DNA of 64,000 nt, from the NCBI GenBank assembly GCA_947346365.1, contig CANAAV010000005.1, positions 29,177 to 93,176 on the forward strand. The letters are read 5' to 3'. Positions 11,369 to 51,103 of the stretch are shown one piece after another. The position numbers and the translations under genes were made by a program. The notes below the pieces were generated by a model. That model was not told the origin of the DNA. It did no database searches and worked only from the letters and a program-made list of their open reading frames with translations. Origin of the DNA: an uncultured Flavonifractor sp. (GTDB lineage Bacteria; Bacillota; Clostridia; Oscillospirales; Oscillospiraceae). Numbering within the stretch: position 1 is the stretch's first letter; each line of letters starts with the position of its first letter.

Positions 11369-11959
11369 TTACCCCGCGCAGTACGTCTCTTCCTCTTTTA
11401 CCAGCTTCTCCAGCTCCTCCCAGGTCAGCGCCATGCACTCAACCTCTTCCCAGGTCTGAAAGCGCTTTTCCATTAGTTCCCACGTGATATACCAGTATAC
11501 ATATAAGATGTTCAAATGGCATGGCAGGATATCTTCTATGATGGCGCGCATTTCCTCAAAGCGCTCTGGAATCCCCGGCACATCAGGAAAACGCACCTCC
11601 ACATGTCCGGGCTGCCCAGTTTCACTGGCCACGGCGTTCAGGCCGCAGCCTTTCAGATTGCTGTTGACAGCCTCCAAAGTAAAGCTGTCTCCCCCAATCC
11701 GCAGCAGCGCCGCCAATGCCTCTCTCCGCCGCTGCAGCGTATCCGCCACCGGTTTTTGCGCCAGCAGGCGTTCTATCGCGTCCAGTCCCGGTCCTTGGGC
11801 CGTAGAAACCAGCATCTCCCGTTCCAGCGCCTCCAGCCAGCCTCCGCAGCCGTCCAGCGCTGCCCCCTCGGCGGCCAGCTCCGCGCCGTTGTAGGAATTT
11901 TCCAGCCGGTAGACCCGCAGAGGGCGCAGCAGGTCTTTTAAATACTGTTCGTATCCCAT
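11369..11959 (-). CDS. XkdU-like phage tail protein (DUF2313/YmfQ family)
   Basis: 196 aa; immediately downstream of the baseplate J gene as xkdU is in PBSX; ATGA start/stop overlap. Confidence 0.6.
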   Translation of the reverse strand: MGYEQYLKDLLRPLRVYRLENSYNGAELAAEGAALDGCGGWLEALEREMLVSTAQGPGLDAIERLLAQKPVADTLQRRREALAALLRIGGDSFTLEAVNSNLKGCGLNAVASETGQPGHVEVRFPDVPGIPERFEEMRAIIEDILPCHLNILYVYWYITWELMEKRFQTWEEVECMALTWEELEKLVKEEETYCAG

Positions 11960-13011
11960 CAGGCCGTCTCCGTTACCGACAGCCGCTCCAGCCAGGGCAG
12001 CTCAGACCTGTCCACCGTTATGTCAGCCGCGGGCGCACGGAAAGCATAGTTCTCCACTCCATCTACGCTGTAGACCAGCCCGCCCAGCTTGGCCCGCAGT
12101 ATGTCCTGCCCCAGCAGCTTCCCGTCAAACCACCCCCGCAGGCGCTCCTCTACCCCGCGCAGCACCGCCGCCTTGTCCGCTCCCTTTCTGGGCGTAACAG
12201 AGACCTCCACGTTGACCGGCTTTATCTCGGGCGCCTTCACCTGTACGTCTACGGCAATCTCCCTGCGCGCGCGAAAGTACTCCTTCAGCTCCTCCAGCAG
12301 CGCATTCTCCGGCAGTCCGGCGGCCGTGGATACCACCACGTCCACCGTTCCCACGCCCCGGGGCCGCGGAATCACCACGGCCGCCGCCACCTCCGAAAAG
12401 GACATCGCCCCCTGCTGGTAAAAAGCGGCGTTGGCCCCGTTGGGCATCCGCTGAAAGGTCTCCAGTACCCGTACTCGCAGGGCCTCATCGTCCTCCCGGT
12501 CCGCTCCGCCGGAAAACGCCTCCGGATTACTGCACCGGCTGACGCCGATCGGAGCCACCGCCATGGCCCGTATGGAGCCCGCCGCCGCATTGCCCGCCGC
12601 TCCCGGCGTTACGGCACGCGCCCGTACCTCTGCGCTTGTCTCCTCCGCGCCCAAAACAGCGTCTTCCTCCGTTTCAAACCGCACCTGTCCCGCCGTCAGG
12701 CATACCGTTCCCGCCGGAATGGTCAAATCGGCCGCCGCCGTGCTGTCCCGCTCAAACCGGAGTACTCCCCGCGCGGCCACTGCCTCCCGCCGTTCCAGCC
12801 CCCGCAACTGGGCGTGGCGGTCCAAAAACTCCCCCTGGGCAGTCTGGGGAAAGCATTGCCTGCCCACCCAGTCGGCCTGTACATACAGCGCATAAATCTG
12901 CGCCGCCACCGCATACAGCCGCACCGCCATGTCCCCGTCCCCGGCCAGATTCATTCCGGTCTCCCGCCGAAAAACCTCTGCCATCTCCTGATAGATTTTC
13001 TCCACCGTCAT
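11959..13011 (-). CDS. baseplate J-like protein (XkdT-like)
   Basis: 350 aa; gpJ/Baseplate_J family features and position. Confidence 0.75.
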   Translation of the reverse strand: MTVEKIYQEMAEVFRRETGMNLAGDGDMAVRLYAVAAQIYALYVQADWVGRQCFPQTAQGEFLDRHAQLRGLERREAVAARGVLRFERDSTAAADLTIPAGTVCLTAGQVRFETEEDAVLGAEETSAEVRARAVTPGAAGNAAAGSIRAMAVAPIGVSRCSNPEAFSGGADREDDEALRVRVLETFQRMPNGANAAFYQQGAMSFSEVAAAVVIPRPRGVGTVDVVVSTAAGLPENALLEELKEYFRARREIAVDVQVKAPEIKPVNVEVSVTPRKGADKAAVLRGVEERLRGWFDGKLLGQDILRAKLGGLVYSVDGVENYAFRAPAADITVDRSELPWLERLSVTETA

Positions 13012-13404
13012 CTACCGCACCTCCGCCGTCACACGCAGCGTCTCGCCCCGCCAGAGCAGGTCCACTTTCAGACAGCCGTCCTCCCCCAGCTCTACCTGCT
13101 CCACCTCCAGCTCCGTCTCTCCCGCCAGGGCTTCCGCTACGTATTGCCGGGCCAGTCCCGTCCGCCGGGAGGGCGGCTGGCCGAAGAGCAGGTAGAGCCT
13201 GCTGCCCAGCTGGGGCAGCGGTGGGAACGCGCCGCACTGTATGCTCAGCTTCCATTGCACCCGCTGCAGTATCTCCTCGCTCTCCCCGCTGCGTACAAAG
13301 CCTCCTCGCCCGTCGCTCAGATAATCTCCATCTTGTACCTTCAGCTCCACGCCTATCCCTCCTGTACCAGGACGGGCTTGCCGTTGACCAGCACGTCCCC
13401 CCAC
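13012..13404 (-). CDS. XkdS-like baseplate protein (DUF2634, gpW-like)
   Basis: about 120-130 aa, position between XkdR-like and baseplate J; start may lie downstream of 13404 because the ORF overlaps the upstream gene. Confidence 0.5.
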   Translation of the reverse strand: MGGRAGQRQARPGTGGIGVELKVQDGDYLSDGRGGFVRSGESEEILQRVQWKLSIQCGAFPPLPQLGSRLYLLFGQPPSRRTGLARQYVAEALAGETELEVEQVELGEDGCLKVDLLWRGETLRVTAEVR

Positions 13405-13724
13405 ATGGAGATCGTCCCCGTGTTGCTCAGAAAAATAGACGCTCCGCCGCTGTAAATATAAATTTCGCCGGGCGCCAAGGCCAGATTACCGCCCTCCCGC
13501 ACCCCTGCCGCACAGGGCTGTTCTTTGTCGGCGCCCGCCTTAACCACCAAGATCTCCTGCCCCGCTCTGGGCCGCCAGGCATATCCGCCAGGTCCGAATA
13601 CCGGCATATCCCTCCGCTCGGCGCCCAGCACCGCACCCGCCGGGTCTCCGGGCAGCGTCACCCTCCCCACCTGGGCGGTCTCTTCCTGCCGCCGCTGTGT
13701 CTCGTTCCGTCTTGAAAGCCACAC
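13353..13724 (-). CDS. XkdR-like small baseplate/spike protein
   Basis: 123 aa; C-terminal GDVLVNGKPV resembling gpV/XkdR small beta proteins; synteny. Confidence 0.45.
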   Translation of the reverse strand: MWLSRRNETQRRQEETAQVGRVTLPGDPAGAVLGAERRDMPVFGPGGYAWRPRAGQEILVVKAGADKEQPCAAGVREGGNLALAPGEIYIYSGGASIFLSNTGTISMWGDVLVNGKPVLVQEG

Positions 13725-13760
13725 TGTGTCGATACTCCCCCTTGTCCATTTTCCGTCCGG

Positions 13761-14711
13761 CTACGGCAGCGTCCCCCTCTCGCCCAGGGTCAAAACCGTG
13801 TATGTCCCGCGGCTGTCCAGGCCGGAGGCGCTCTCCACCACCTGCCAGATCCCGCCGCACACATTCTGCTTCAGCGCCAGCTCCACCATATCGCCGGGCC
13901 ACGCCCGAAAAGCCCCCGGCAGCGTCACTTCCAGCCGCCGCAGCTCTTCCGCTGAGCGCCGGAGCTGGTACTCTCCAGAATAACGCATAGCCTGATAGCT
14001 GCTGCGCCCCGGCATGGTCAGCACCCTCCTGCACCGGCCGCCCCGGCCGGCAAAGGGCTCGTTGCGCACCTTCTGCACCTTGCCGCTGCTCCTCTCCCGC
14101 ACCAAAATTTCAGACAGCACCCCGTACCGCCGCTCCCGCAGGGTGAAAGCGGTCACCGCCGTGCTGCCGTCCAGGCGAATGCGCTCTCCCTCCTTCCATG
14201 GGGCGGCTGTCAGCCGCCCCATGCGGTCAAATCGGGGGGTCACACCCCCATAATAACGGCAGAATTCATAGAGCACCTGCCACTCGCTGCTTCCCGTAGC
14301 CACGGAAAACCCCGGCACAGAGGGCAGTTCCGCCAGTTCGGCCGTCTCAATTCCATAGGGGGCCACATGGTCCCGCAAGATATCCGCAAAACTGGCTATC
14401 TGGTAATCGCAGCCCAAAGCCTCATTGTCCAGCAGCAGGGCCGCCATGCCCCGTCCGGAGACGCTCAGCCGTCCGCCGCCGCCGTCCCAGCCGCATTCGA
14501 TCTCGTCCACTACGCCGGTGAAAACCCGTTCTCCGTTCTCATCCGCCGTAAAGCGAACCGCTTCCGCCAGTATTCCCGCCTCTTCCGGCTTCCAGAGGCA
14601 GGTCAAAAAAAAACTGTCGCAGGGAACGCCGCAGGCATATTCCATTTTCCAGCCTGTCATATCGGGCAGCGCGATGCGCCGCCCATCCCAGCACTCCAGC
14701 GTTCCTCTCAT
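13761..14711 (-). CDS. XkdQ-like baseplate hub / late control gene D-like protein
   Basis: 316 aa; follows the LysM protein with overlapping stop/start; size and position as xkdQ. Confidence 0.6.
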   Translation of the reverse strand: MRGTLECWDGRRIALPDMTGWKMEYACGVPCDSFFLTCLWKPEEAGILAEAVRFTADENGERVFTGVVDEIECGWDGGGGRLSVSGRGMAALLLDNEALGCDYQIASFADILRDHVAPYGIETAELAELPSVPGFSVATGSSEWQVLYEFCRYYGGVTPRFDRMGRLTAAPWKEGERIRLDGSTAVTAFTLRERRYGVLSEILVRERSSGKVQKVRNEPFAGRGGRCRRVLTMPGRSSYQAMRYSGEYQLRRSAEELRRLEVTLPGAFRAWPGDMVELALKQNVCGGIWQVVESASGLDSRGTYTVLTLGERGTLP

Positions 14712-15274
14712 CGCACGCGCACCTTCTCCCCCGTCAAAACGAAATTGGGATTTTTGATCTGGGGGTTAAGGGCAATCACCGCGCTCAGGCTGACCCCATA
14801 AGCCTGGGCAATTCCCCAAAGGGTCTCTCCCTGGCGCACGGTGTGCCAAAGGCCGCCTCCCCAAGCGGCGGAGGCAGCACCCTGCGCGTTCTTTTCCTCC
14901 ACCCGTATCCCTGTGTTGTGCCCGTCAAACCCCTCCCAGAAGGCAAAGGCATAGCGCACATAATCCGCTCTGGGCTCCTGCCTCAGAGAGAGTTCTACAA
15001 AGTAGGCGTCGGACGTCTGCCAAACCGGATGGATCAGCAGTCCCGGCCCGTCCTCGTAAAACACGCTGGCCAGCTGCTTAAACTGCTGATAGGCCTCCAG
15101 CCCTACAAACTCTCCCTCGCCCCTCATGATCCGTTTCGCGGGCCCCATGTCCTGGAGAAAATACCGTCCAAAGGGGACCTTCTGCTCTCCCATAACCCGT
15201 TCATATTCAATGGTATAGGTCCTGGGATTGTGCGGCCATACAAACCCTTTATACCGCATTGCCGCCAGCTTCAC
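14708..15274 (-). CDS. XkdP-like tail protein with C-terminal LysM domain
   Basis: 188 aa; C-terminal LysM motif (GETLWGIAQAYGVSLSAVIALNPQIKNPNFVLTGEKVRV). Confidence 0.75.
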   Translation of the reverse strand: MKLAAMRYKGFVWPHNPRTYTIEYERVMGEQKVPFGRYFLQDMGPAKRIMRGEGEFVGLEAYQQFKQLASVFYEDGPGLLIHPVWQTSDAYFVELSLRQEPRADYVRYAFAFWEGFDGHNTGIRVEEKNAQGAASAAWGGGLWHTVRQGETLWGIAQAYGVSLSAVIALNPQIKNPNFVLTGEKVRVR

Positions 15275-15295
15275 CGCCGGTGCACCTCCTCGCTT

Positions 15296-15958
15296 TTACA
15301 AAAGGGAAAAGCCCCCGTCATACCGTCTGGCGTCCCGTTCCAGCACTCGGTCCAGCTCCGCCGGCGAAAGGACTTCTTTGTAAACAGCGCCCTGCCGCAC
15401 CGCCGCAGCGGCCGCAGCGCTGCGCGGCTGTATCCGGTGCTCCAGCGCTGCCGCGCCGGCGCCCAGCCGGCGGTACAACCAGCCAGCCCCTGCCCTCTGC
15501 CTCAAGGGCGCCGCCCCTTCGCCCCCTGCTGACTGTTCCCGCATTGTACCCTCCTGCATATCCGGGGACTCCGGCGCAGTCCTCTGCGCTTCTAGGGCAG
15601 CTTGGCTCCTTTCCGCTCCCCGCTCTGGCCGCGCCGGTTCTGCGCCGCCCCGCTCCGCCCTTTTCTCTTTCCTGAGTTCCAGATCAATCGGACTGCGCGC
15701 CGCCCACCGCTTCAGCGCCCCGCCTGCGCCGCGGTATCCCTGCGCCCCATCCTGTTCCCGCAGCTCCGGCGCTGCGCGCCCCCACGCCGCCTCCCCGCCA
15801 CGGAAATCCGACCCGTCCGCCGTCTGTCCCGGTGCCTGCTCTCCCACCGGTTTTCTTCGAAGCAGCGCCATCCCTCCGGCTTCCAGCGCCACCCCCAGCT
15901 CATCCCGCTCCTGTTCCCGCTCTTGCTCCTCCAGCAGCAGCGCCAGATAGTCCGTCAC
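15296..15958 (-). CDS. putative very short tape measure-like protein (Ala/Arg/Glu/Gly-rich)
   Basis: 220 aa, low-complexity predicted helical; sits in the tape-measure position between chaperone GT and XkdP; ATGA overlap with upstream stop. Confidence 0.4.
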   Translation of the reverse strand: MTDYLALLLEEQEREQERDELGVALEAGGMALLRRKPVGEQAPGQTADGSDFRGGEAAWGRAAPELREQDGAQGYRGAGGALKRWAARSPIDLELRKEKRAERGGAEPARPERGAERSQAALEAQRTAPESPDMQEGTMREQSAGGEGAAPLRQRAGAGWLYRRLGAGAAALEHRIQPRSAAAAAAVRQGAVYKEVLSPAELDRVLERDARRYDGGFSLL

Positions 15959-16254
15959 TGTGCTTCCCCCCGCTCCAGCTGCCGGAACCGCTGTAGGTCA
16001 AAGCAGGGGTTCTCCCCCGCATCCTCCGCCGCGGCACCGCCGCACACCGGGCAGCGCGCCTGCTGCGCCTCCGCCCGGCAGGACGGACACAAATGAGACA
16101 GCTCTTCCTCCTGGTCCAGTATCAGATTCAGCGCGCACCACAGATAGTCTCTGGGCTTCATTTTCTGGGCCCGCTCCTCTGTGGGCAACGCCCCGAATGT
16201 TTTAAGCACATGCCAGCGCAGGCGTTCATCCGGCATGTGCTCTAGGCTTTTTTT
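15955..16254 (-). CDS. -1 frameshift extension of tail assembly chaperone (GT product), with C-terminal CxxC..CxxC zinc ribbon
   Basis: -1 frame open from the A7 site (16248-16254) to the stop at 15955-15957; fused product about 217 aa; CPSCRAEAQQARCPVCGG motif. Confidence 0.55.
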   Translation of the reverse strand, partial: KKSLEHMPDERLRWHVLKTFGALPTEERAQKMKPRDYLWCALNLILDQEEELSHLCPSCRAEAQQARCPVCGGAAAEDAGENPCFDLQRFRQLERGEAQ

Positions 16255-16607
16255 AGCCCCTGGCACCGTTCCTCTCCATCCTCCGGCGCCGGGTCCTCCG
16301 CCCGGTCGAACTGCGCCCACTGCCGGGCCAGCGCACCGATTTCTCGGGCCGTCATCCGCTCCAACGCTTCCGCCCCGGTTGAAAAGACAGCCTTTCCGTC
16401 TCGCACTAAGGCCCTCGCCAGCAGGCAGGCGTTGGCGCACAGGGCCTGCTCTTCCTCCCTTTGGGCAAGCTGCGCCGCCTCCCGCCGGGCCTGTAAAATT
16501 TCCCTTGCGCTCAGCAGCCGCAGGACGCTCCCATCTTCCAGCTGCATCTGCTCCCGCCCGTATAAGAAACCATGCTCCTCCATTTTCTTCCTCCCAGCGC
16601 GGCTCAC
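16242..16607 (-). CDS. tail assembly chaperone (XkdN-like, G product)
   Basis: 121 aa; between tube and tape-measure position; ends CTA AAA AAA GCC TAG with an A7 slippery run. Confidence 0.65.
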   Translation of the reverse strand: MSRAGRKKMEEHGFLYGREQMQLEDGSVLRLLSAREILQARREAAQLAQREEEQALCANACLLARALVRDGKAVFSTGAEALERMTAREIGALARQWAQFDRAEDPAPEDGEERCQGLKKA

Positions 16608-16993
16608 ACCGCCGTCTCAATCCGCTTCGTCGCCGTCACCGTAATCTTTTCCAGCACCATGTTCCCTAACGTCCCATTTTCACCGATGCTGCTCCACTGG
16701 CAGCCGGAGTAGATAATACGCCGGTCCGGCTTGCAGATCACTAGGCTGAAATCCTCCAGCTCATGAAAATTCAATCCATCCCGAATCGCCTCGTCCGTGG
16801 CGTAAAGCCGGGTCAGCTCAATCACATGGCTGCGCGGCCCCGCAATGGTCGCCACCGGCTCCTCCTCGCCAAAGGCCTCTATCACCTGGCTGCTGCGGGT
16901 GGTGCGCACGCTGTAGCTCTGCACCACGGCCACTTTCTTTCCCTCTGCCTCCAAATAAATGTCGCTACTGGTGGGAAATCCCGCAATTTTCAT
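16604..16993 (-). CDS. phage tail tube protein (XkdM-like)
   Basis: 129 aa; XkdM/DUF2001-like; immediately after sheath gene. Confidence 0.75.
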   Translation of the reverse strand: MKIAGFPTSSDIYLEAEGKKVAVVQSYSVRTTRSSQVIEAFGEEEPVATIAGPRSHVIELTRLYATDEAIRDGLNFHELEDFSLVICKPDRRIIYSGCQWSSIGENGTLGNMVLEKITVTATKRIETAV

Positions 16994-17009
16994 CTGTCAC
17001 TCCTCGCTC

Positions 17010-18038
17010 TCAAACGGTAATATGGGCGCTGATCCAAATCTGGTTGAGCCCATGGGCCACCGTAAAGGAAAACTCCACCAGGCACACGGTGGGCTCTTCC
17101 TCGTCCGCCCGGACATTGACTCCGCTGTAGCCGGTAATAATCTCCCGCGCCAGCTTATTTTCCAGCTCCATAATCACCTGGGAGCGGATCGCCCCCCGGC
17201 TCTGCTCGGTATTTTTCGCTCTGCGGAATCTACTGCGCAGGGCGTTGCGCACGGTGGGAATCACATCGTCCACTATGCGTATGGTGGTCAGCTCCCGCCA
17301 TGTGCTGTCCGATGCATCTCCGCTTTTGGTGCGGGTGGTAACGCCGCGCACCACGCTGACCTGGCCCAGCGTATATTCCAGGGGGGTCACCCCTCCCTGA
17401 ATCAACGTATCCAGTTCCGTGTCGTCAAAGCTGCGCTCTATTCCGTCCAGCCCCTGCAATACAGCGCCTCCCAGGGGAACAGCAGGGTCCCGCTCCGCGG
17501 CGATAACTCCCGCCACCGCCGCGGCTGCGGCGCCGTCCTTCCCCGCCGGCGCCGCCAGCACCACCCGTTCGCTGTTCAGGGCCTGCGCCCTTGCGGTAAG
17601 CTGGCTCACGTCCTCCTCCCCGCCGCCCTGTACTACCGCAATCCTCTCCCGTCTGGCCTCAGACGCGCTGTGCACGCTCTCCCGCAGCTTTTGCTGCACG
17701 CTTAGCTGTACGCTGTCGCACACCACAATGGAGATATCCTCTTCTCCCTGCAGCAGCGCAAACGCCGTATCATAGCCCTCCTCGGCCGCCACCGGAACAG
17801 CCTTCACCTGAGCCGCCCCGTTGAGGAAAAGCACTCTCGCCAGAGCGCTCAGGCCGTCTTCCGCCCCGAACTGATTTACCGCGTCCTCATAGCGGCTCAA
17901 AACATACAGCCGCCCCGCCGTGTCTTTGCCGCCCTTGGCCGCCAGGCCCACCACTCCGCCGCTCCCGCTGCCGCTGATTACTGCCGAGGCGTCATAGCTG
18001 GAATAGACCCCCGGCCTTTCATGCCTTGCCGTGCTCAA
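17010..18038 (-). CDS. phage tail sheath protein (XkdK-like)
   Basis: 342 aa; N-terminal ERPGVY motif typical of contractile sheath proteins. Confidence 0.8.
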   Translation of the reverse strand: MSTARHERPGVYSSYDASAVISGSGSGGVVGLAAKGGKDTAGRLYVLSRYEDAVNQFGAEDGLSALARVLFLNGAAQVKAVPVAAEEGYDTAFALLQGEEDISIVVCDSVQLSVQQKLRESVHSASEARRERIAVVQGGGEEDVSQLTARAQALNSERVVLAAPAGKDGAAAAAVAGVIAAERDPAVPLGGAVLQGLDGIERSFDDTELDTLIQGGVTPLEYTLGQVSVVRGVTTRTKSGDASDSTWRELTTIRIVDDVIPTVRNALRSRFRRAKNTEQSRGAIRSQVIMELENKLAREIITGYSGVNVRADEEEPTVCLVEFSFTVAHGLNQIWISAHITV

Positions 18039-18592
18039 ATCCTGCCCTCTCCTTTTACGATAAAGTCTAAAAATGCGCCGCCCTCATCCGCCACAGCGTA
18101 AAGATAGCCGTCGCAGATGGCCTGCGCCGGGCAGTGGAACAGTCCCATCCCCTGGTCGTATTCCACCTCTGTACAGGATATTTCCCGTATCTTCAATCCC
18201 GCCGGTCCCGCCTGGTGAAAGGCCTGGACCATCCGGTCAAACACCGCCCGGATGCCCTCCGCCCCGCACCCTTTAGGCGCGTACAGGTCCAGTCCGAACC
18301 TCAGTTGAATCTTCCGCCCGTACAGCTCTTCCCAGCGGCCGGCCTCCTCATTGTACCGCTCCCCCAGGTAGTCCTGGAATCCCCCCGGTCCCCCCTGACA
18401 GGCCCGCAGGGATACCGCCGCCGCCGCGCCCTCCCGGCGCGCTCTGGCTCCGTCTGGCCAGGCACATACCGCGTCAACTCCATGCTGCCGTAAAAATTCC
18501 GCCATCCGTTCCCTCGCCCGGTCCAGCGCCGCCGCTCTATCCTCCCTCCGGGGGGTGGGGCCCTGCAGCCCCGCCTTATATGCCTCCGGCAT
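18035..18592 (-). CDS. phage tail completion / XkdJ-like protein
   Basis: 185 aa; position between head-tail joining genes and sheath; translationally coupled. Confidence 0.4.
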   Translation of the reverse strand: MPEAYKAGLQGPTPRREDRAAALDRARERMAEFLRQHGVDAVCAWPDGARARREGAAAAVSLRACQGGPGGFQDYLGERYNEEAGRWEELYGRKIQLRFGLDLYAPKGCGAEGIRAVFDRMVQAFHQAGPAGLKIREISCTEVEYDQGMGLFHCPAQAICDGYLYAVADEGGAFLDFIVKGEGRI

Positions 18593-18920
18593 CTGGATCC
18601 CTCCGTTTCAAAATCGCCCGCCAGTGGTTTACCTGCCCGCCCAAATAGACCGGGCAGGCATTTACCACCTCGAATTTCTCTCCCTGCCACAGGATATATC
18701 CCGCTTCTATCCCCTCCAGGGAGAGTTGCGGATGCCCCAGGTACCGCCACCGCCCCTGGGGCGCTCCGCCCAGGGGCGTAGGCAGCGGATCCTGTCTCTC
18801 CTGCCTAAGCGGCTGTACAAATGCCTTGCCGCTTTCACCGCACTCCTCTTCTCCGCGGCAGACCTTCACCCGCTCCCCGTAACGCTCCAGCACGGCGGCA
18901 AACGCTTCTCCGGGGCTCAT
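18576..18920 (-). CDS. phage head-tail joining protein (XkdI-like)
   Basis: about 114 aa from ATG at comp(18918..18920) overlapping upstream stop (ATGA). Confidence 0.4.
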   Translation of the reverse strand: MSPGEAFAAVLERYGERVKVCRGEEECGESGKAFVQPLRQERQDPLPTPLGGAPQGRWRYLGHPQLSLEGIEAGYILWQGEKFEVVNACPVYLGGQVNHWRAILKRRDPDAGGI

Positions 18921-19279
18921 CCTGGCGTCCTCCGGAAGGCGAAGCCCTCGTCTTGGAGATAGGGCGCCATAATCCTCCGGGCCTGGCGCTGCAGAGCCGC
19001 CTGCCGGGCCGGAGCGCCTGCGCACCCTTCCATCTGAACAGACACATCTCCCGCGGTAAACCGCTCCACCCTGCTCTCCTGCCCCGCGGCCAATCCGGCC
19101 AGGGCCAGCCAGGCCCCCGCCAGGAGAAAAGCGTCTCCGCAGTCACGGGGAGATACCCCGTCCCGCAGCCTGCCACGCAGCTCCGCCTCCGCCCCGCGGC
19201 AGAGCACGCGCAGTCTCTCGTCCTCCTCCGGCACTTGACCCAGCTTTTTCGCCAATGCGAAAATCTCTTCCTCAATCAC
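18917..19279 (-). CDS. phage head-tail connector (gp6-like) protein
   Basis: 120 aa, directly after major capsid gene with ATGA overlap. Confidence 0.45.
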   Translation of the reverse strand: MIEEEIFALAKKLGQVPEEDERLRVLCRGAEAELRGRLRDGVSPRDCGDAFLLAGAWLALAGLAAGQESRVERFTAGDVSVQMEGCAGAPARQAALQRQARRIMAPYLQDEGFAFRRTPG

Positions 19280-20304
19280 AGGGACAGCACCTTGGCAGCG
19301 TCCGCAAAGAGCTTGGCAAAGCCGCTGACGCTGGTAATCGCGGCCCGCTCCAGCTGCCGGTCAATGAGCTTGTCGTATTCCACCAGCACATCGGACCCCT
19401 GCACCATCTCCAGCGCATAGCGCTTGTCCAGGCCGACCACCGTGCCGCTTTCCAGCGCGGAAGTCCGCAGCAGCGTCGCCCCCAGGGGTGTAGCCAGCTT
19501 TCCGGTGCCCTGGAAATTGAGCCCTGTCAGGGGATTCTGGAACTCGGGGAGCTTGAGCATCTGAAGCATCACATCCCCGGATACCAGCAGCGTGTTCATC
19601 TCATAGGGGTCAAACTTGGCCCAAAAGTCCACCAAGTCCTCATATTTCAGGGCCTTTTTCTGGCCGCCCGTCCCTGCGGAAGCCTGGAACACCTCTGCGG
19701 GGTTGCCGTTGCCGTCTCCGTGTAAAAGCACGTCAATGGCGTCCTCGAGATGCATCCGGTTGATGTGCGCGCCAATCTGCCGCAGCGTCACTGAAAACAG
19801 GTCCAGCTTTTGGTAGCGGATCGCCTCGTAAGAGGCCACCAGCATCCGCCCCCGCTTGTGCAGGCGCACCAGGTTTTCCTGGGTCTTGATCTTGGTCTGG
19901 GGGATGGCCGCCCCCTCTTCCACATAGCGCAGCTGCTTTTGTTCCTCGTCGGGTACGGAGGTGATCGAACGGTAGTCCGCGCCGTTAAACTTGGTCACCG
20001 TGGCGGCAATGTGGGGAAGCAGATTGGCCTCCTCCATGCCCTGCCGCACAGACCGGGCCACATATTCCGGAAAAAGCACGGCGGACTGCGTGGTGTGGAA
20101 AAACTTTTCCACCACGTCGGACCCTGCGCCCTTCACTTTGATGTCAAACCGCTTTAGCTGCCGCTGATAGGCGTCCATCCCCTCCAGGGCGGTGCCCTTA
20201 TAGGCCCCGGAGGGGTCCTCCCGTTCCAGCGTCTGCGTAAAGGAGCGCCCTGCTTCGCTGTACATTCCCTTTTCCAGCTTCAAATTATCGTAACGGTAAG
20301 CCAT
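19276..20304 (-). CDS. major capsid protein
   Basis: 342 aa; size and position after scaffold/protease-like gene. Confidence 0.65.
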   Translation of the reverse strand: MAYRYDNLKLEKGMYSEAGRSFTQTLEREDPSGAYKGTALEGMDAYQRQLKRFDIKVKGAGSDVVEKFFHTTQSAVLFPEYVARSVRQGMEEANLLPHIAATVTKFNGADYRSITSVPDEEQKQLRYVEEGAAIPQTKIKTQENLVRLHKRGRMLVASYEAIRYQKLDLFSVTLRQIGAHINRMHLEDAIDVLLHGDGNGNPAEVFQASAGTGGQKKALKYEDLVDFWAKFDPYEMNTLLVSGDVMLQMLKLPEFQNPLTGLNFQGTGKLATPLGATLLRTSALESGTVVGLDKRYALEMVQGSDVLVEYDKLIDRQLERAAITSVSGFAKLFADAAKVLSL

Positions 20305-20319
20305 GCTATCTCCTCCTCC

Positions 20320-20658
20320 TTACAGCCGGATCACAGCGCCGGCGCTGCCGGCGCTGACCACTAAAAACTCGTCCCCCGCGCTCTCGTCTTTCTTTACGCC
20401 GCCTGCGCCGTCGGCGCTCAGCTTGACCCAACCGGCGTCCACCTCACCGGAGATCCTCACCGTAGCCAGGCCGCTCAGCTGCACGCTGGCCCGCCCATCT
20501 CCGGTGTGTAGCGCCACGCCGCAAAACCGCTCTCCAGCCCCACAGGCGCCTACCGTCCCATCGCCTGTGATTTTGACCACCTGCCCGTCCAGCGCCCCGT
20601 CTCCACACTCGAACGTAGCCGCCACCTCGCCAATTCCCTCAAATGAAATCTTTTTCAT
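20320..20658 (-). CDS. small Gly-rich head protein (possible decoration protein)
   Basis: about 112 aa from ATG at comp(20656..20658) with AAGGAG RBS; Gly/Asp-rich beta-type sequence between scaffold and capsid genes. Confidence 0.4.
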   Translation of the reverse strand: MKKISFEGIGEVAATFECGDGALDGQVVKITGDGTVGACGAGERFCGVALHTGDGRASVQLSGLATVRISGEVDAGWVKLSADGAGGVKKDESAGDEFLVVSAGSAGAVIRL

Positions 20659-20761
20659 GCTCCGCTGCTCCTTTCCTATCTCAAGCTGTTCTATCTGCAA
20701 ACACGCTGCCCCCGCATGTCCTTCCTCCCGCCCCCATATTCTGGGGTACCCCCCGTTCCGC

Positions 20762-21640
20762 TCAGATCAAAAACGCGCCGTCTTTCCCGCCGCCCTCCCC
20801 CGCCGGACCGGCGTACTCCAGTTGGGTCTTCACGGGAAAGCGCTCACTCAGCCTTCGCTCATAGTTCTTTTTCAGCGCCAGCAGCTCCGTTTCCCCCAGC
20901 TTTTCGGCAATGCTCTTGCAGACGTCTCTCCCCAGCTCCGGCTCGGCCAGACCGCCCAGGCGCACAACCTCCCAGCGCAGGCCCTCCAGATATTTCCGCC
21001 CCAGGGCCGCCTCCTGCTCCAGCCGCTCCCGCTGCTGCAGGCCTTTTAATACCCCGGCCTTGGGCTGGGCCGGCACCGCTACAAAGGACCACTCATAGGC
21101 GTCGGTGGCCCCTATCAGCTCGCTCCAGCACAGCTTTCCTCCATATTCCTGCCCTTTTACGTGGGCGCAGCCGCGCGCCTCTTCTCCACAGACAGAGCAC
21201 ACAGTCCGCGCCACTGCGCAGCTGATGGAGACCTCCTTTTTGATCCCGCCCTCAATCTCTTCAATCAGCTCCCGGTTTGCCTGCGTGCGCAGCATGTAGG
21301 CGTATCCCTTCAAATAACAGTAAGGGTCTCCCGCTCTGGTCAGCAGCCCCTCTTCCCGCACCAGCTCCGTGCGGTAGAGCCGGGCGGCCTGCCCCCGGGC
21401 GCTCCACTGGTGGTCGAACATGCCGCTCTTCCCCACAAACAGCCGGGACAGCTCCTCCAGCGTCTCCACCGGAAAGCGCTCATAGTCCCGGTCCACCTCG
21501 TTGTCGCACAGCCTTACGCAGAAGGTGTATACCTCTTCCGCCTGTAGTGTCCTTCGGCTCAGGGCGTTGATTTGGCTCAGCACCTGCGCATCCACCGCCG
21601 TGCCCATGCCCCCGGCGGCCGCTTCCTTGACAATTTTCAT
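20762..21640 (-). CDS. XkdF-like prohead protease/scaffold protein
   Basis: about 293 aa from ATG at comp(21638..21640), AAGGAGGGG RBS; N-terminal enzymatic-like half with C..C..C....C cluster and coiled-coil C-terminal half. Confidence 0.5.
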   Translation of the reverse strand: MKIVKEAAAGGMGTAVDAQVLSQINALSRRTLQAEEVYTFCVRLCDNEVDRDYERFPVETLEELSRLFVGKSGMFDHQWSARGQAARLYRTELVREEGLLTRAGDPYCYLKGYAYMLRTQANRELIEEIEGGIKKEVSISCAVARTVCSVCGEEARGCAHVKGQEYGGKLCWSELIGATDAYEWSFVAVPAQPKAGVLKGLQQRERLEQEAALGRKYLEGLRWEVVRLGGLAEPELGRDVCKSIAEKLGETELLALKKNYERRLSERFPVKTQLEYAGPAGEGGGKDGAFLI

Positions 21641-21657
21641 GCTGCTCGCTCCCCTCC

Positions 21658-22818
21658 TTATTCTGCTCCCGCTTTTTGATTGTTCTCTCGCAGTGCTTTT
21701 GCCTGCTCCCGGTAGAGTTCCGCTCTGGCCTCCTCCACCAGGTCCTGCAAGTTCATGTCCTCCCACTCCACCTCCACCTGTCCGCTGTATCCATGCAGCC
21801 GCAGCCACAGCTCGCAGATGCGCTCCACCACGGGGGTCAGCCCCCGCCGTATGGCGGTAATCTCGCTGGTCATCATGTCGGCCTGCTGTGCGCTCATGCG
21901 TTCGGTAGAGGACCAGGACAGTCCCAGCAGGAAGGGTGGGATTCCTGTGCGGGCAACCAGCTGCTCCAAAATCTGCCGCACCGGCGTCTGGCTGTCCAGC
22001 ACCTGATTGTCCGCCCCGATAACTTTAATGTCCACGTCGCCTACGGCGACGAAATCCCGCACGCTGCCATCCTTTCCCGCCTGCATGGCGGCGGACCACT
22101 CCTGGGCAATCTGGCGGCTGCGCTCCTGGGCCCAAACGCCGTCCAGCTCGTCTCCGCCGGGCTTGTAGACCACGGCAAAGCGCACGTTCCCCATCCGTTC
22201 CCAGTTCATGCCTACCGCCTGATAAATTTTCAGCAGGATCTCGGTCAAAAACGGCATGGACCGCAGCAGGCTTACCCCATAGGGGTTGTCTGCCTCCGGC
22301 TGGAAGGGCGTAAACAACAGCAGCTCCTGCCAGGGCAGCTCTTTCAGGGCCGCGCCCTGCCTGGTGCACAGCGTAAACTGTAAGGGCGAATCTCCCTCTT
22401 TGATCTCCACATCCGCCGGATTGCCGCACAGTACGGCGGCGATCTCCTTTTTGGACCAGTCCAGCACAATCTCACCCACGCCGCGCCCACAGGTGAGCAT
22501 GGAGTCCAAATACTGGTCCAAAAAGGACTGGAGCCCCCGCTGTCCCCGTCCGGTGTTCACCTGGCGCAGGAAGCGGTCAAGTTCTTTCTGACCTCCCCCG
22601 TCCGCACAGCGGACCTGCACGCCGCCCGCCAGCCGGATCAGCTTCCAAATTGCCGCGTCCACCACCGGCACCGCCTCCCGGATGCTCCGATACAGCTGAA
22701 TCTCGCCGTTTTTCAGCGGCACATATCCGTCCAGTAGCCCAAAGGGATGCCGCTGTCCGCTCCGAATCTGCACGGCGCTCCCCGCCGCCGGGGCCTTCCT
22801 TTTGTTCCAAAATCCCAC
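21658..22818 (-). CDS. phage portal protein
   Basis: 386 aa; follows terminase large subunit; SPP1/PBSX-type portal features. Confidence 0.75.
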   Translation of the reverse strand: MGFWNKRKAPAAGSAVQIRSGQRHPFGLLDGYVPLKNGEIQLYRSIREAVPVVDAAIWKLIRLAGGVQVRCADGGGQKELDRFLRQVNTGRGQRGLQSFLDQYLDSMLTCGRGVGEIVLDWSKKEIAAVLCGNPADVEIKEGDSPLQFTLCTRQGAALKELPWQELLLFTPFQPEADNPYGVSLLRSMPFLTEILLKIYQAVGMNWERMGNVRFAVVYKPGGDELDGVWAQERSRQIAQEWSAAMQAGKDGSVRDFVAVGDVDIKVIGADNQVLDSQTPVRQILEQLVARTGIPPFLLGLSWSSTERMSAQQADMMTSEITAIRRGLTPVVERICELWLRLHGYSGQVEVEWEDMNLQDLVEEARAELYREQAKALRENNQKAGAE

Positions 22819-22833
22819 GTCTCTCCCTCCTAT

Positions 22834-24090
22834 TTAAAAGCGCCGCCGTTCGGCCGTCGCCGCCGCCAGGGCTCCTCCCTGCCGCCCTGCCGCCACCGTG
22901 GCGGCAAAATAGCGGATGTCGTCCATCGCGTGATCGTGCGCCTTTTTCACCCGGTCCCCCACGGCCCGCTCGTCCCAGCAGTACTGGGAAAATTCCCGGA
23001 TTGCGTCCGTACATCCCTGGCAGATCACCAGCCTGCCCTGCCGCAGCAGCTCTGCGGTCGTCCGTATGCCGGAGATCACGTCGTTTTCTGCCCGCGCCAC
23101 CCGCCAGCCTCTGCGGCGCAGCGTCTCAATAAAGCTGGCGGCCGAGGGGTCCACCACTGCCAGCTCTATCCTCCGCCCCCCTGCCAGCCGCTCCAAATCC
23201 TGCGCGTATTCTCCGTCTGTCTTTTGCCGCCCGTGGATTTTGGAGTCATAATAGTACTCCTTGACCCGGTACCACACCCCGTCCCGCTTCCCCCACAGCC
23301 CAAAGGAGGCGGGATTCACCGTGCCGTAGTCGCAGGAGACGCACCACCGCTCCAACTCCCCCTCTGGCGGCGGGCGCACATAGCGCTCGTCGAAAAAGTC
23401 GTACACTCTCCCCTCGGCGGCTGTCCATTCCCCCAGCACAAACCGCCGGAAGAAAGCCCCGCTGAAATTTCTCGCGTAGCGCTGAATCACCTCCGGCGGC
23501 AGCGCAGGATTGTCCTGCATGAAAAAGTGCAGGTACAGCGCCCCCCGTTCCTCGCTTTTCTGAATCCATTCCCGGTAAAACCAGTGCTCCGGCCCTTCCG
23601 GGTTGCAGGAAAACCACAACTTGCTCCCCTTTACCGAACACCGGGCGCAGGTCTGCTCCACAAAGGACCTGGGCATCAGCGCCACCTCGTCCAGCAGCGC
23701 CCCCGCCAGCGTAATCCCCTGAATCAGCGCGGCGCTCCCCTCATCCTTTCCTCCAAAAAGATAAAACGTGTTTTCCCGTCCTCCAAAGCGCACATCCAGC
23801 GTATTTTGGGCCGTCCGCTCCCTGCACGTAAATCCCAGCTCCCGCAGCGCCGGCAGCAGTCCGTACAGCAGATTGCGCCGCAGCGCCCCTATGGTCTTTC
23901 CGCACAGGGCAAAGCGCTGCGCGTGAAACCTGCGCATAGCCCAGCAGAAAAAGGAAAGACCGAGGCACAGGGTCTTCCCGCTGCGCACCGCCCCGTCACA
24001 GATTACGGCCTCCCGTCCAGAGGTCTCCGCCCCATCGCACCACCAGGTCAGCGCCAGCCGCTGTTTTTCTGAAAAGGCCTCAAACTCCAT
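22834..24090 (-). CDS. phage terminase large subunit (PBSX XtmB family)
   Basis: 418 aa; Walker A GAVRSGKT; terminase_6-type ATPase and nuclease halves. Confidence 0.85.
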   Translation of the reverse strand: MEFEAFSEKQRLALTWWCDGAETSGREAVICDGAVRSGKTLCLGLSFFCWAMRRFHAQRFALCGKTIGALRRNLLYGLLPALRELGFTCRERTAQNTLDVRFGGRENTFYLFGGKDEGSAALIQGITLAGALLDEVALMPRSFVEQTCARCSVKGSKLWFSCNPEGPEHWFYREWIQKSEERGALYLHFFMQDNPALPPEVIQRYARNFSGAFFRRFVLGEWTAAEGRVYDFFDERYVRPPPEGELERWCVSCDYGTVNPASFGLWGKRDGVWYRVKEYYYDSKIHGRQKTDGEYAQDLERLAGGRRIELAVVDPSAASFIETLRRRGWRVARAENDVISGIRTTAELLRQGRLVICQGCTDAIREFSQYCWDERAVGDRVKKAHDHAMDDIRYFAATVAAGRQGGALAAATAERRRF

Positions 24091-24433
24091 CCGTCCGCCC
24101 GTCTCCTGCCTTTCCCTCCAGAGCCCGGAAGAACTGCTCGGCCCGCTCGGCCTCCCCCTCTCCGCTCAGCGCAGCCAGCTTTTCCAGCGCCGCGATCCGG
24201 TCAACCAGCTTGATCTCCACCCCCCCGCTGGCGTTGCGCCTGAACTCCGCCAGCGCCCCCAGCTCCAGAGCGTCGATTCCCTTCATCTGCTCCGTATCCA
24301 GTCCGCCGTCCAAAAACGCCAGCTTTACCGCGTCGTTGACCCGGCAGTCTGCAATCCGCCGAATTCTGCACAGGGCCTGCCTGCGTCCATTTCTGCCCTT
24401 GGAATCCCCGTTCATCCTGTTCTCCCCCCTCAT
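24080..24433 (-). CDS. phage terminase small subunit (Terminase_2 / XtmA-like)
   Basis: 117 aa; KLVDRIAALEKL motif characteristic of the Terminase_2 family; overlaps start of large subunit. Confidence 0.6.
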   Translation of the reverse strand: MRGENRMNGDSKGRNGRRQALCRIRRIADCRVNDAVKLAFLDGGLDTEQMKGIDALELGALAEFRRNASGGVEIKLVDRIAALEKLAALSGEGEAERAEQFFRALEGKAGDGRTDGV

Positions 24434-24504
24434 TGTCTACACGGCTGCACTGGAAATGTTTCCTGCTCCCGTACATCCTCCCGGCGTTTTGGCGTCAAAA
24501 AAAT

Positions 24505-24541
24505 TCAAAAAGCTGGCGCGGGCCCGGAATCTTTTCATTCC
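24505..24541 (-). terminator. strong stem-loop (15-bp stem) with minus-strand T-rich tail, directly upstream of the phage-like element
   Basis: GGCGCGGGCCCGGAAT-CTTTTC-ATTCCGGGCCCGCGC; on the minus strand followed by AGCTTTTTGAATTTTTTTG. Confidence 0.5.
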
Positions 24542-24668
24542 GGGCCCGCGCTAGCTTACGAAAAACCTCACTGAGCTCGCGCCCTCCGGCGCAAATCAAC
24601 GCAGCATCTGTTTATGAAATTGTTGTCAGTCCGCACCGTGCATACTTTTCTCTCTGCGGCCTATGCTA

Positions 24669-24806
24669 GGCCTTGTTTGAAGAATGGGAATATGCCCAAG
24701 GGCGAGGGATTTTTTCGGCTGGCAAGGGGTTTTGACGCAGGAATCCTGACGGATTTCAAGGAAAAACCCTGCCATTTGGACGTGTTAATAATTTTCAAAC
24801 AAGGCC
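24669..24806. repeat. MITE-like dispersed repeat, full copy A (TIR GGCCTTGTTTGAA / TTCAAACAAGGCC)
   Basis: about 138 bp; near-identical to 50890-51050; 13-16 bp terminal inverted repeats. Confidence 0.8.
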
Positions 24807-24875
24807 TAAACGGCACACAGCTCCGGCGCTCTGTCCACGGCCGGATATCAATACGCAGAAAGCGGTGTAATTTTC

Positions 24876-25421
24876 ATGGCGGTTTGGTTTTGGCAGTTTC
24901 TCTTTTATAGTTTCCTGGGCTTTGTGTTTGAGGTGTTCTTCGCCCGCGCCGTCCACAATCCAAAGCGGGACCGCAAATGCCGCTATTTTCTCCCCCTGTG
25001 CCCGGTATACGGTCTGGGGGCGGTGGCGGTGCTGCTGCTGCCGGAGCATCTTCGGTCCCATCCGGTCGTGTTCTTCCTGTGCGCAGCGGCCCTGTGCACC
25101 GTCGTGGAATACGCCACCGCGCTCTTTTATGAAAAGGCCTTGGGGGTATCCTTTTGGGACTATACCCAGCTCCCGCTCAATTTCGGCGGCCGGGTCTGCC
25201 TTCCCTTCTCTCTGCTCTGGGGACTTCTCTCTCTGCTCCTGCTGTGGATCACCCAGCCCTATGCCGCCGGCCTGGCCGGTGCGCTTCCCCCATGGCTGCT
25301 TCCGCCGGCGGTTTTGTTCTTTTTTGCGGACAGCGCCTGGAGCTTCTTCCTCCTGCGCAGAACGCAGGACACCGCTTCACTGCGCTGGTACGCCCGCCTG
25401 GGCGCCCGCCGTACGGCTTAA
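24876..25421 (+). CDS. integral membrane protein (4-5 TM)
   Basis: 181 aa hydrophobic ORF with clean ATG start. Confidence 0.5.
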   Translation: MAVWFWQFLFYSFLGFVFEVFFARAVHNPKRDRKCRYFLPLCPVYGLGAVAVLLLPEHLRSHPVVFFLCAAALCTVVEYATALFYEKALGVSFWDYTQLPLNFGGRVCLPFSLLWGLLSLLLLWITQPYAAGLAGALPPWLLPPAVLFFFADSAWSFFLLRRTQDTASLRWYARLGARRTA

Positions 25422-27658: not shown

Positions 27659-28752
27659 GGGCAGCAGTCCTCCCCGTTCTCCAGCGCCGCCAGTCCAAAA
27701 CGCGCCGCCTGGAGCAGCTTTTCCCGCTCTGCGCCGTCTTGGGCGCTCTCCCACTGCGCCCGCAGCTCCCGCAGAAACAGTCCGGTCAGGTTGTCTTCCC
27801 CCGCCCGCTCCCACAAGTCCCGGGCCGGGCGGGTCCTGTCCCGCAGGACCAAAGTAAAGCACCTGCCTGCCCCCAGCCGTTCCAAGGCAGCCAGATCCGG
27901 CAGCTGCCGCCGTTCTCCCGTCAGTACAATCCGCAGGCAGTCCTGGCTCAGCTCCGGGCTCAAAACGGCCGTCAGAGCCTCCTCCGGCGATTCCGCCTCC
28001 GTCAGGTCCACGGTGAGCTGCTGGTACCGCCGGGCCGCCAGGGGAACAAACCGGGCGCTGACTGTCCCCCCGTCCAGGGTAACGGACAAAACTCCCTTGT
28101 CCCCCGTCTCGTCAAATCCCCGGCCCTCGGGACAGCCGGGATAAGCCCAGTAGGTCTCTCCCGCCTTTTGCAGGCCGGAGCAGGTATGCACATGTCCCAA
28201 GGCTAAATAGTCCAGCCCGCTCTGCGCGATATCTTCCAGCGCAATCGGACCGTACCGCCCGCGCTTTTCCACATTGCCGTGGAGCGCCATCAGGTGTATC
28301 TTCCCATCCTTTGGCGCGGCAAACCCCATCAGAGGGGACCGGTCCGCGTGGGGCGTGGTAAACGCCGCGCCATGAACCACGCACCCCAGTTGGGGCAGCT
28401 CCACCCCTTCCACCGCCACGGTGGAAAAAATATGTACATTGTCCGGCCAGGCCGTCCCGGCGTATACCGAGCGCTCCGACCAGAAATCGTGGTTTCCCGG
28501 CGCGATCAGCACCGGAACCCCCATCTGCTCCAGGGCCTGGGAGAGGGCCTGCACCGTGTCATAATAGGTCTCTCCGCTGTCCAGCAGATCGCCGGAGAGA
28601 AGCACCAGATCGGCTCCCTCGCTGTGCACCAGCTCCGTCAAACGGCCCAGCAGGGCCCGTTGCTCCTCCCGGCGGCGGCGTGAGAGCGCCGGCGGCAGGG
28701 CGGCAAAAGGGGCGTCCAGATGGAAATCCGCCCCATGGATCAGCTTTAGCAT
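27655..28752 (-). CDS. SbcD/YhaO-like metallophosphoesterase (DNA repair exonuclease)
   Basis: 365 aa; calcineurin-like motifs GDLHL-type (ADFHLD, GDLLD, GNHD). Confidence 0.8.
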   Translation of the reverse strand: MLKLIHGADFHLDAPFAALPPALSRRRREEQRALLGRLTELVHSEGADLVLLSGDLLDSGETYYDTVQALSQALEQMGVPVLIAPGNHDFWSERSVYAGTAWPDNVHIFSTVAVEGVELPQLGCVVHGAAFTTPHADRSPLMGFAAPKDGKIHLMALHGNVEKRGRYGPIALEDIAQSGLDYLALGHVHTCSGLQKAGETYWAYPGCPEGRGFDETGDKGVLSVTLDGGTVSARFVPLAARRYQQLTVDLTEAESPEEALTAVLSPELSQDCLRIVLTGERRQLPDLAALERLGAGRCFTLVLRDRTRPARDLWERAGEDNLTGLFLRELRAQWESAQDGAEREKLLQAARFGLAALENGEDCCP

Positions 28753-29684: not shown

Positions 29685-29746
29685 TAAGCCTTGTTTGAAA
29701 ATGGTCCACACGTCCAAAAGGCGGGTCTTTTTCAGACTAGGCCTAA
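29685..29746. repeat. truncated, inverted copy of the MITE-like repeat (plus a further TIR-like fragment at 29661-29675)
   Basis: CTAAGCCTTGTTTGAAAATGG..CCACACGTCCAAAAGGCGGGTCTTTTTC is the reverse complement of the right end of copy B; ends in CTAGGCCTAA. Confidence 0.65.
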
Positions 29747-51050: not shown

Positions 51051-51103
51051 TAGTCCCGGCCTCCCCTCTATTCTAGCGCTCCAAAGGTTTTAAAACCATC
51101 TCC

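Follow-up and report, generated by a model that had tools for sequence, protein, structure and literature searches.

A cluster of 20 tightly coupled genes on the minus strand of a 64,000-nt stretch of DNA from an uncultured Flavonifractor sp. (assembly GCA_947346365.1, contig CANAAV010000005.1; hereafter the window) appears to encode a phage-derived particle that is maintained by its bacterial host. The cluster occupies positions 11369-24415 and comprises 19 open reading frames (ORFs) and one -1 frameshift product, which together form the full set for a head, DNA packaging and a contractile tail, with no other function encoded. The reading that we favour, with a probability of roughly 0.6, is a domesticated particle operon that packages DNA non-specifically, and its gene content, together with its intact inheritance under selection in dozens of gut Flavonifractor-like species, makes the cluster a strong candidate for an undescribed gene transfer agent (GTA) or PBSX-like particle. 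The cluster is old, non-mosaic and has diverged together with its flanks in closely related species.

The genes are separated by at most 103 nt and show numerous overlaps of 1-17 nt, and public assemblies with identical sequence, whose genes were called independently, show the same 20 genes. Their order runs from the small and large terminase subunits (TerS and TerL) through the portal, a protease/scaffold, a small head protein, the capsid and the connectors to the sheath, the tube, the chaperone, the gene in the tape-measure position and the baseplate. A first-pass annotation of the window had described a compact minus-strand island of 20 coupled genes in the order of the PBSX operon, from xtmA to xkdU; profile searches and the independent gene calls confirm the island, and the gene order also stands. 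The same annotation had reported no integrase, repressor, replication, fibre or lysis genes in the window, and this extends to about 10 kb further on either side. Longer contigs of the same species reveal no phage-type genes in these additional 10 kb or in the remaining window, and xre/xpf-type regulators, a tail fibre and a holin/endolysin cassette are lacking over the same range. Integrase, repressor, replication and lysis genes, whose contiguous presence with att sites had been named as the finding that would speak against a domesticated particle, are absent from about 84 kb around the cluster, and no regulator gene lies inside it. No direct repeats of 10 bp or more bracket the cluster, and no att-like repeats were found. 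The contiguous integrase and att sites, repressor, replication and lysis genes of a temperate prophage are not present, and what is found is, as for GTAs, a chromosomal cluster of head, packaging and tail genes without integration, excision or replication genes of its own.

The base composition and codon usage of the cluster are host-like, as initially proposed. The GC content is 63.1% in the cluster and 62.8% in host genes (about 62% for the window), GC at third codon positions (GC3) is 75% against 77%, and the relative synonymous codon usage (RSCU) of both sets correlates with r = 0.90; the composition of the cluster is thus ameliorated to that of the host. The housekeeping character of the flanks was also correctly recognised, with gatCAB, murI, argS, a gluQ-like gene and a major facilitator superfamily (MFS) transporter on one side and a CmpB-like membrane protein, sbcCD and ymdB on the other.

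Relatives of the element were collected by scanning one genome per species, which yielded 254 species with a relative. Ratios of non-synonymous to synonymous divergence (dN/dS), calculated by the Nei-Gojobori method for 13 species pairs, have medians between 0.04 and 0.25 in each of the 19 genes that could be tested, the few values above 1 being misaligned high-scoring segment pairs (HSPs). All testable cluster genes are under purifying selection, and the head and packaging genes (TerL and portal, 0.08 each; capsid, 0.05) are constrained as strongly as the tail genes, among which the tube gene shows the strongest constraint in the cluster (0.04). Across 62 genomes (1,891 pairs), head and tail pairwise identities correlate with r = 0.95 and a residual standard deviation of 0.027. 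Head and tail genes thus have a common history, and the cluster evolves as one unit, without the module shuffling typical of temperate phages.

In close species pairs the flanks are syntenic on both sides and their synonymous divergence (dS) matches that of the element, as in the pair L042/L043, where dS is 0.17-0.32 for the flanks and 0.15-0.36 for the element. The exact capsid sequence of the window species is indexed in 72 blocks of the collection, and all six of the independently assembled same-species contigs examined have the same layout and the downstream MFS/gluQ side; the upstream sbcCD-CmpB side was seen on the one same-species contig that reaches that far. In the nearest relative, L007, sbcC still adjoins the element and has 75% identity, similar to that of the element proteins. 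The long-term vertical inheritance and purifying selection that characterise GTAs are thus also found here, with the deeper part of the descent, across the whole clade, being the more conjectural part.

With regard to packaging, the most informative gene is that of TerS (24080-24415, minus strand as for all cluster genes below; 111 aa). Its start is most likely 24415 and not 24433, where the island boundary had first been drawn, and an in-frame upstream extension would reach at most 117 aa. The protein is devoid of the N-terminal helix-turn-helix half of the Terminase_2 family. Its homologues measure 93-125 aa and many have a precomputed PF03592 (Terminase_2) match, which spans only profile positions ~56-130 of 141, and full-length relatives of 152-169 aa begin with around 55 extra residues, which match the profile's first half. 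Both the sequence and the profile coverage indicate that the DNA-binding N-terminal half is missing. The lack of a sequence-specific N-terminal DNA-binding domain is a hallmark of GTA-type small terminases (PMC6854486), and the TerS of the Faecalibacterium prausnitzii GTA, FpGTA, is likewise without an obvious DNA-binding domain (Borodovich et al. 2026, PMC12946183). TerL (22834-24090) contains Terminase_6N and Terminase_6C and passes the equivalog model TIGR01547, 'PBSX family terminase large subunit', with 163.9 bits against a cut-off of 105. Together, the truncated TerS and the PBSX-family TerL suggest that the cluster would package DNA in a sequence-independent manner. Sequence searches of the PDB with TerS and the capsid protein gave no match.

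The functional unit reaches upstream to a conserved, promoter-proximal motif of 24 nt at 24454-24477 (minus strand), ~38 nt upstream of the terS start. The window copy reads GATGTACGGGAGCAGGAAACATTT and the family consensus GGTGTACGCAAACGTACAACTTTT, usually with an A6T6 tract ahead. A position weight matrix (PWM) derived from these loci locates the motif upstream of terS in 58 of 61 loci; across 1.41 Mb of related loci, it scores 20 bits or more at 58 sites, every one of them upstream of terS. In the window, the only other near-match (36367-36390, plus strand, 19.9 bits, GGTGGACGAAAACGGAAACTATCT) is found inside a flgK-like coding region and is probably a chance occurrence. The motif is partly palindromic (TGTACG-N4-CGTACA). 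A role as an RNA hairpin or attenuator was rejected, as only 8 of 56 copies pair at seven or more of eight positions and the window copy is unfolded; since most copies cannot form the hairpin, the motif is read as a DNA signal. No sigma-70-like promoter was detected in 24380-24900 (520 nt upstream of terS), and a sigma-54 promoter at the motif was dismissed by inspection, as the spacing and the GG/GC elements do not fit. An ECF-like (extracytoplasmic function sigma factor) -35 element, 'AAC' followed by a T-tract, is possible at this position. We read the motif as a promoter or operator for a factor that would be encoded outside the cluster. A search for the regulator by way of true phages, in which IMG/VR was scanned for the motif, returned only copies of the element and unrelated contigs, and an E-value Rfam scan of the leader only hairpin look-alikes.

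An unusually strong intrinsic terminator (24516-24551, minus strand), with a 15-bp stem containing 12 G-C pairs and a subsequent T-run, is situated between the divergent gene and the element promoter, where it ends no annotated gene; this hairpin occurs once in the window. Many related loci have a comparably strong terminator 40-120 nt ahead of terS, and the stem sequences are not conserved. In most relatives the terminator follows a co-directional gene and the motif lies downstream of it. For this reason the terminator is read as an insulator, which probably protects the operon from upstream transcription, and the alternative of a leader controlled by antitermination was rejected.

The remaining head genes were identified mainly through profile matches. 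The portal (21658-22818) matches phrog_30703 (2.9e-166), with a Pfam Phage_portal match (1.6e-8) under its cut-off. The gene first labelled 'xkdF' is indeed present (20762-21640, 292 aa as called), its identity being that of a prohead protease/scaffold without a Pfam match (phrog_16951, 3.6e-116), the N-terminal part of which has 43% identity to the 'major head and protease protein' of the Flavonifractor phage Cormatin. It is followed by a small scaffold- or decoration-like head protein of 112 aa (20320-20658; phrog_4588, 1.7e-17; phrog_673 'head scaffolding', 1.2e-6) and by the HK97-type major capsid protein (19276-20304; Phage_capsid_4, 59.3 bits; TIGR01554; phrog_3922, 1.5e-113). Three ORFs of 120, 114 and 185 aa (18035-19279) are assigned to head-tail connection and tail completion by position, with matches to phrog_939 (weak) and phrog_25177 (4.7e-39); they are kept in 75-81 loci with dN/dS of 0.13-0.24.

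The tail genes begin with a minimal contractile sheath of 342 aa (17010-18038; Phage_sheath_1 and Phage_sheath_1C), after which the position and a phrog_27038 match (8e-61) identify the 129-aa tube (16604-16993). The tail assembly chaperone (16242-16583) carries an A7 slippery site (16248-16254) that immediately precedes its stop codon, beyond which the -1 frame runs on for ~100 codons, to 15955. This extension frame is kept in 70 loci with a dN/dS of 0.17, which points to a classic G/GT-type frameshift. The tape measure recognised at first is present by position (15296-15958) and has only 220 aa, its conserved C-terminus ending in ...RDARRYDGGFSLL. In at least 70 loci the ORF has 137-297 aa, with a variable, low-complexity body and a strongly conserved C-terminal LDRxxxRDARRYDGGFxL[Y/L]; even close, Flavonifractor-like relatives show a nearly two-fold length spread (166 vs 297 aa) while the last ~20 residues are near-invariant. 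As a rule of thumb, a tape measure sets roughly 0.15 nm of tail length per residue, and 137-297 aa would then correspond to a tail of ~20-45 nm, very short for a contractile system.

The baseplate genes comprise an XkdP/Mu gp43-like protein with DNA_circ_N and LysM (14708-15274; phrog_184 'baseplate hub'), a Mu gp44/P2 gpD-like hub (13761-14711; phrog_177, 1.1e-33; weak Gp44-like_2nd) and two small proteins (13012-13724), one of 123 aa in the spike position and a gp25-like wedge of 112 aa, with matches to phrog_25991 (1.7e-25) and phrog_43 'baseplate wedge' (4e-4), both kept in 69 loci. Baseplate J (11959-13011; PF04865, 184 bits; phrog_6, 1.3e-77) precedes the last gene of the cluster, a Mu gp48/XkdU-type baseplate protein (11369-11959; PF10076, 1e-5, under cut-off; phrog_521 'tail protein', 6e-17). 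As the cluster terminates with this gene, it has no fibre gene. The tube, the chaperone and the 123-aa and 112-aa proteins have no Pfam match at E <= 0.01.

The sheath has more than 3,000 homologues, the top 120 of which are all ~340-345 aa long with at least 63% identity. The best 80 loci belong to Flavonifractor (including F. plautii ATCC 29863), Pseudoflavonifractor, Lawsonibacter, Intestinimonas, Evtepia and metagenome-assembled genomes (MAGs) of Oscillospiraceae. All 20 genes occur in the same order in at least 60 species-level genomes wherever the contig allows, and the span from TerL to the gp48-type gene is 12.0-13.3 kb. IMG/VR contains many provirus calls of 12.9-13.9 kb that consist of just the cluster; two copies in this database, L092 (5457-6404) and L095 (6117-6490), contain 370-950 additional nt between their portal and protease genes, which are missing from the other loci. 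Among 50,697 phage genomes, the identity of the capsid or sheath never exceeds 31%, except in unverified human-faecal 'Bacteriophage sp.' contigs. One of these, L178 (MT835508.1), is a 46.7-kb contig with 47.5% GC and a related head module from TerS to capsid (22800-27705, 39-57% identity), without any of the tail genes of the cluster; its TerS is full-length (up to 191 aa) and has the N-terminal region, and MarR and ABC-transporter genes lie upstream of it. Another, L002 (MT835769.1; 10400-18586), combines a related element with ~8 kb of upstream non-element sequence, two ORFs of which have no PDB sequence match. If this data set consisted of DNase-treated DNA from virus-like particles (VLPs), the ~8-kb flank would be host DNA in particles; the MT835xxx records could not be tied firmly to a Mexican VLP study.

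Additional genes follow the baseplate in a minority of relatives. Directly after the gp48-type gene and on the same strand, ~13 of 64 loci encode a CBM_5_12 protein of 150 aa, a holin (PF05105) or both, and the last baseplate gene is followed by Amidase_2 in one locus and by an M15 peptidase in another. Examples of such co-directional genes (~153-aa CBM_5_12, Phage_holin_4_1, Amidase_2 and Peptidase_M15_4) are located in L034 (16530-16991), L040 (16540-16986), L036 (13348-14246), L064 (14163-15461) and L082 (16085-16759). These genes are possibly remnants of an ancestral receptor-binding and lysis cassette. Their retention after the last baseplate gene in a minority of relatives suggests that the lysis cassette is ancestral and has probably been lost from the cluster or relocated in most lineages, including the window species.

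The closest parallel among known systems is PBSX of Bacillus subtilis, whose xtmA-xkdU late operon has the gene order of the cluster from TerS through the XkdU-type protein and whose family model, TIGR01547, TerL satisfies. PBSX is likewise a chromosomally fixed, non-replicating particle cluster in a Firmicute. Nevertheless, the likeness first proposed can be shown for TerL and gene order and not for most tail proteins. The tube, the chaperone and the proteins in the XkdR and XkdS positions miss the Pfam families that presumably hold XkdM, XkdN, XkdR and XkdS, and only the XkdP-like (LysM), XkdT-like (Baseplate_J) and, weakly and under cut-off, XkdU-like (PF10076) proteins match PBSX-type families. 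Furthermore, PBSX has adjacent xre/xpf-type regulators, the xkdV fibre and the xhlAB/xlyA lysis cassette, which the cluster does not have in the window species. The tape measure of PBSX, with roughly 1,300 aa, is much longer than the ~220 aa found here, and the minimal 342-aa sheath and the truncated TerS are further differences. The hosts also differ, those of the cluster being Oscillospiraceae, strict anaerobes with ~62% GC.

With GTAs of the RcGTA type (Rhodobacter capsulatus, Caulobacter CcGTA), the cluster shares a compact head-tail arrangement of ~13-15 kb without integration or replication genes, vertical inheritance and purifying selection; lysis and attachment genes located outside the main cluster and regulation from elsewhere would be further parallels. 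However, the RcGTA tail is of the siphovirus type, whereas that of the cluster is contractile (myovirus-type) with a Mu/P2-type baseplate; the sequence families are unrelated, and the cluster, which has a Gram-positive host, is known from its genes alone. FpGTA shares with the cluster a gut Oscillospirales host, a head/packaging operon, the TerS feature described above and the absence of replication genes. It is near-ubiquitous within its genus, is podovirus-like and packages 8.4-8.9 kb; its genes are divided between operon I, with 10 genes, and a distinct operon II that supplies baseplate, fibre, holin and endolysin (PMC12946183). By that description it is set apart from the cluster, in which 20 genes form one operon that includes a sheath, a tube, a chaperone with frameshift and a tape measure, and no Faecalibacterium genome is present among the best 80 sheath loci. 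R-type tailocins (pyocin R2, diffocin) and Mu/P2-type tails have in common with the cluster the sheath, the tube, the G/GT-type frameshift, the hub and the gp25-, J- and gp48/I-like genes. Tailocins have their fibres and lysis cassette in the cluster and much longer tape measures, and they do not possess genes for a capsid, a portal or a terminase; in the cluster, TerS, TerL, portal, protease and capsid are all present and constrained.

The proposal of the first-pass annotation that this is a domesticated particle rather than an active prophage is upheld by the missing modules, the conservation, the selection, the absence of mosaicism, the co-divergence with the flanks and TerS. Its tailocin option fares less well, as a pure tailocin is unlikely given that the head and packaging genes are as constrained as the tail genes. 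The main rival explanation is that of a killer in the manner of PBSX, in which DNA-filled, non-transducing particles kill competitors by tail contraction and packaging is kept only for head assembly or stability. The complete and strongly constrained contractile tail and baseplate, the PBSX-family TerL and the PBSX-like gene order are all in keeping with this idea, and PBSX itself reportedly functions as a tailocin although its particles package host DNA of 13 kb (PMC12946183). We nonetheless regard such a killer as unlikely, although deserving of serious attention: no fibre or receptor-binding gene is in the cluster, the very short tape measure is unlike those of PBSX and known R-type tailocins, and the head and packaging genes, the truncated TerS included, are at least as constrained as the tail genes, which is hard to explain if the DNA is irrelevant.

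The absence of integration, replication, regulation and lysis genes could also be that of a helper-dependent selfish element, which a co-resident prophage induces, packages and spreads. The conserved motif without a cis-encoded regulator could then be a late promoter for the activator of the helper phage, lysis genes are present in some relatives, and related contigs occur among the faecal 'Bacteriophage sp.' deposits, which may be a VLP data set. This explanation appears highly improbable in view of the missing att repeats, the single chromosomal site in all six examined same-species contigs, the dS equal to that of flanks that are syntenic in sister species, the lack of mosaicism, the host-like composition and the motif never being found with other phage genes in the IMG/VR scan. 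An inert, slowly decaying prophage remnant without current function would account for the loss of most phage modules and for the provirus-detection tools that flag the cluster as a short provirus, but it is scarcely credible for 20 genes that at least 60 species have kept whole and in the same order, with dN/dS of 0.04-0.25, a conserved frameshift site and promoter motif and a constant cluster size.

Several observations weigh against the non-specifically packaging, host-maintained particle that we favour. The fibre or receptor-binding gene is absent from the cluster and no lysis gene is found within ~84 kb in this species, which leaves particle release and adsorption unexplained. Flanking genes differ between genera, and flank clustering identified no gene that universally accompanies the element, so that vertical descent across the clade is inferred from non-mosaic co-divergence and not from synteny. 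Some true phages also have a short TerS, and the AlphaFold model of TerS is of low confidence (predicted local distance difference test, pLDDT, 60), too poor for a fold search. The motif could have another role, for instance in packaging. Finally, PBSX, the nearest functional analogue, packages DNA but kills instead of transferring it (PMC12946183).

If the favoured reading is correct, the cluster would be a chromosomally fixed 'viriform' of the Flavonifractor/Lawsonibacter/Intestinimonas/Evtepia branch that makes small-headed particles with a short contractile tail. The heads would fill with random host DNA, taken up without sequence specificity, and this random packaging would make the particle a GTA or a PBSX-like DNA-containing particle. 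Expression would be driven from a dedicated promoter with the conserved 24-nt motif, which would be read by a regulator or an alternative sigma factor encoded elsewhere in the genome; with an unlinked regulator reading the motif, we propose that the timing of a cell's commitment to particle production would be under host control. In the window species, cell lysis and receptor binding would be supplied by unlinked genes, as in RcGTA and FpGTA.

As for the surroundings of the cluster, the MFS transporter, the host gene next after the gp48/XkdU-type gene, has its own promoter-like site. The remaining window genes are flagellar, relA, recJ, sporulation and rRNA-methylase genes, and Rfam and tRNA scans found no tRNA or Rfam family in the window. 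A dispersed palindromic repeat of ~60-165 nt, similar to miniature inverted-repeat transposable elements (MITEs) or repetitive extragenic palindromes (REPs), has copies at 24667-24808, 50888-51052 and 29685-29745. Its perfect 15-nt termini (TAGGCCTTGTTTGAA) give 8 matches against 0.11 expected, with single ends near 6414 and 48803, and the two long copies are closely similar over most of their length in an alignment. Since the repeat recurs in the window, it is not specific to the element. This palindrome explains why contigs of independent assemblies end in or beside the repeat upstream of terS. An invertible promoter, considered as assemblies break at inverted repeats upstream of terS, was rejected, the breaks being attributable to the dispersed repeat and the terminator hairpin.

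To our knowledge, only a handful of GTA or GTA-like systems with known genes exist, the Gram-positive ones being PBSX and, since 2026, FpGTA. That the element had not been described in this clade, as suggested at first, holds for the literature searched for GTAs together with these genus names, which contained no description of such an element. The claim needs qualification in that a 2026 paper reports packaging in Oscillospiraceae without identifying the genes: GTA-like packaging of ~5.9 kb was seen in an Oscillospiraceae MAG (Onthomonas) and could be traced to no gene cluster (PMC12946183). A recent long-read virome study reports that human-gut Ruminococcaceae and Oscillospiraceae commonly have random bacterial DNA packaged, and it was unable to name the genes responsible in the Oscillospiraceae case. 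The cluster is a concrete candidate for the packaging genes of Oscillospiraceae that can be tested by PCR, and cultured carriers exist, namely F. plautii ATCC 29863, Intestinimonas massiliensis and several Lawsonibacter species. A more far-reaching proposal, which we put forward tentatively and consider slightly more apt to be wrong than right, is that the cluster is the genetic basis of GTA-like packaging in gut Oscillospiraceae and the first GTA to have a contractile tail in miniature, and that nearly all Flavonifractor, Lawsonibacter, Intestinimonas and related genomes carry it, with a clade-wide 24-nt promoter signal read by an unlinked host regulator and with relocated lysis and receptor-binding genes.

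Three traits make the element unusual: a TerS without a DNA-binding domain, a very short tape measure combined with a contractile sheath, and a promoter motif whose deep conservation suggests that a regulator exists. If active, it would serve for gene flow, or for killing between strains, among gut anaerobes that are abundant and metabolise butyrate and flavonoids, and it would be a systematic source of 'viral' contigs and host DNA in VLP data sets.

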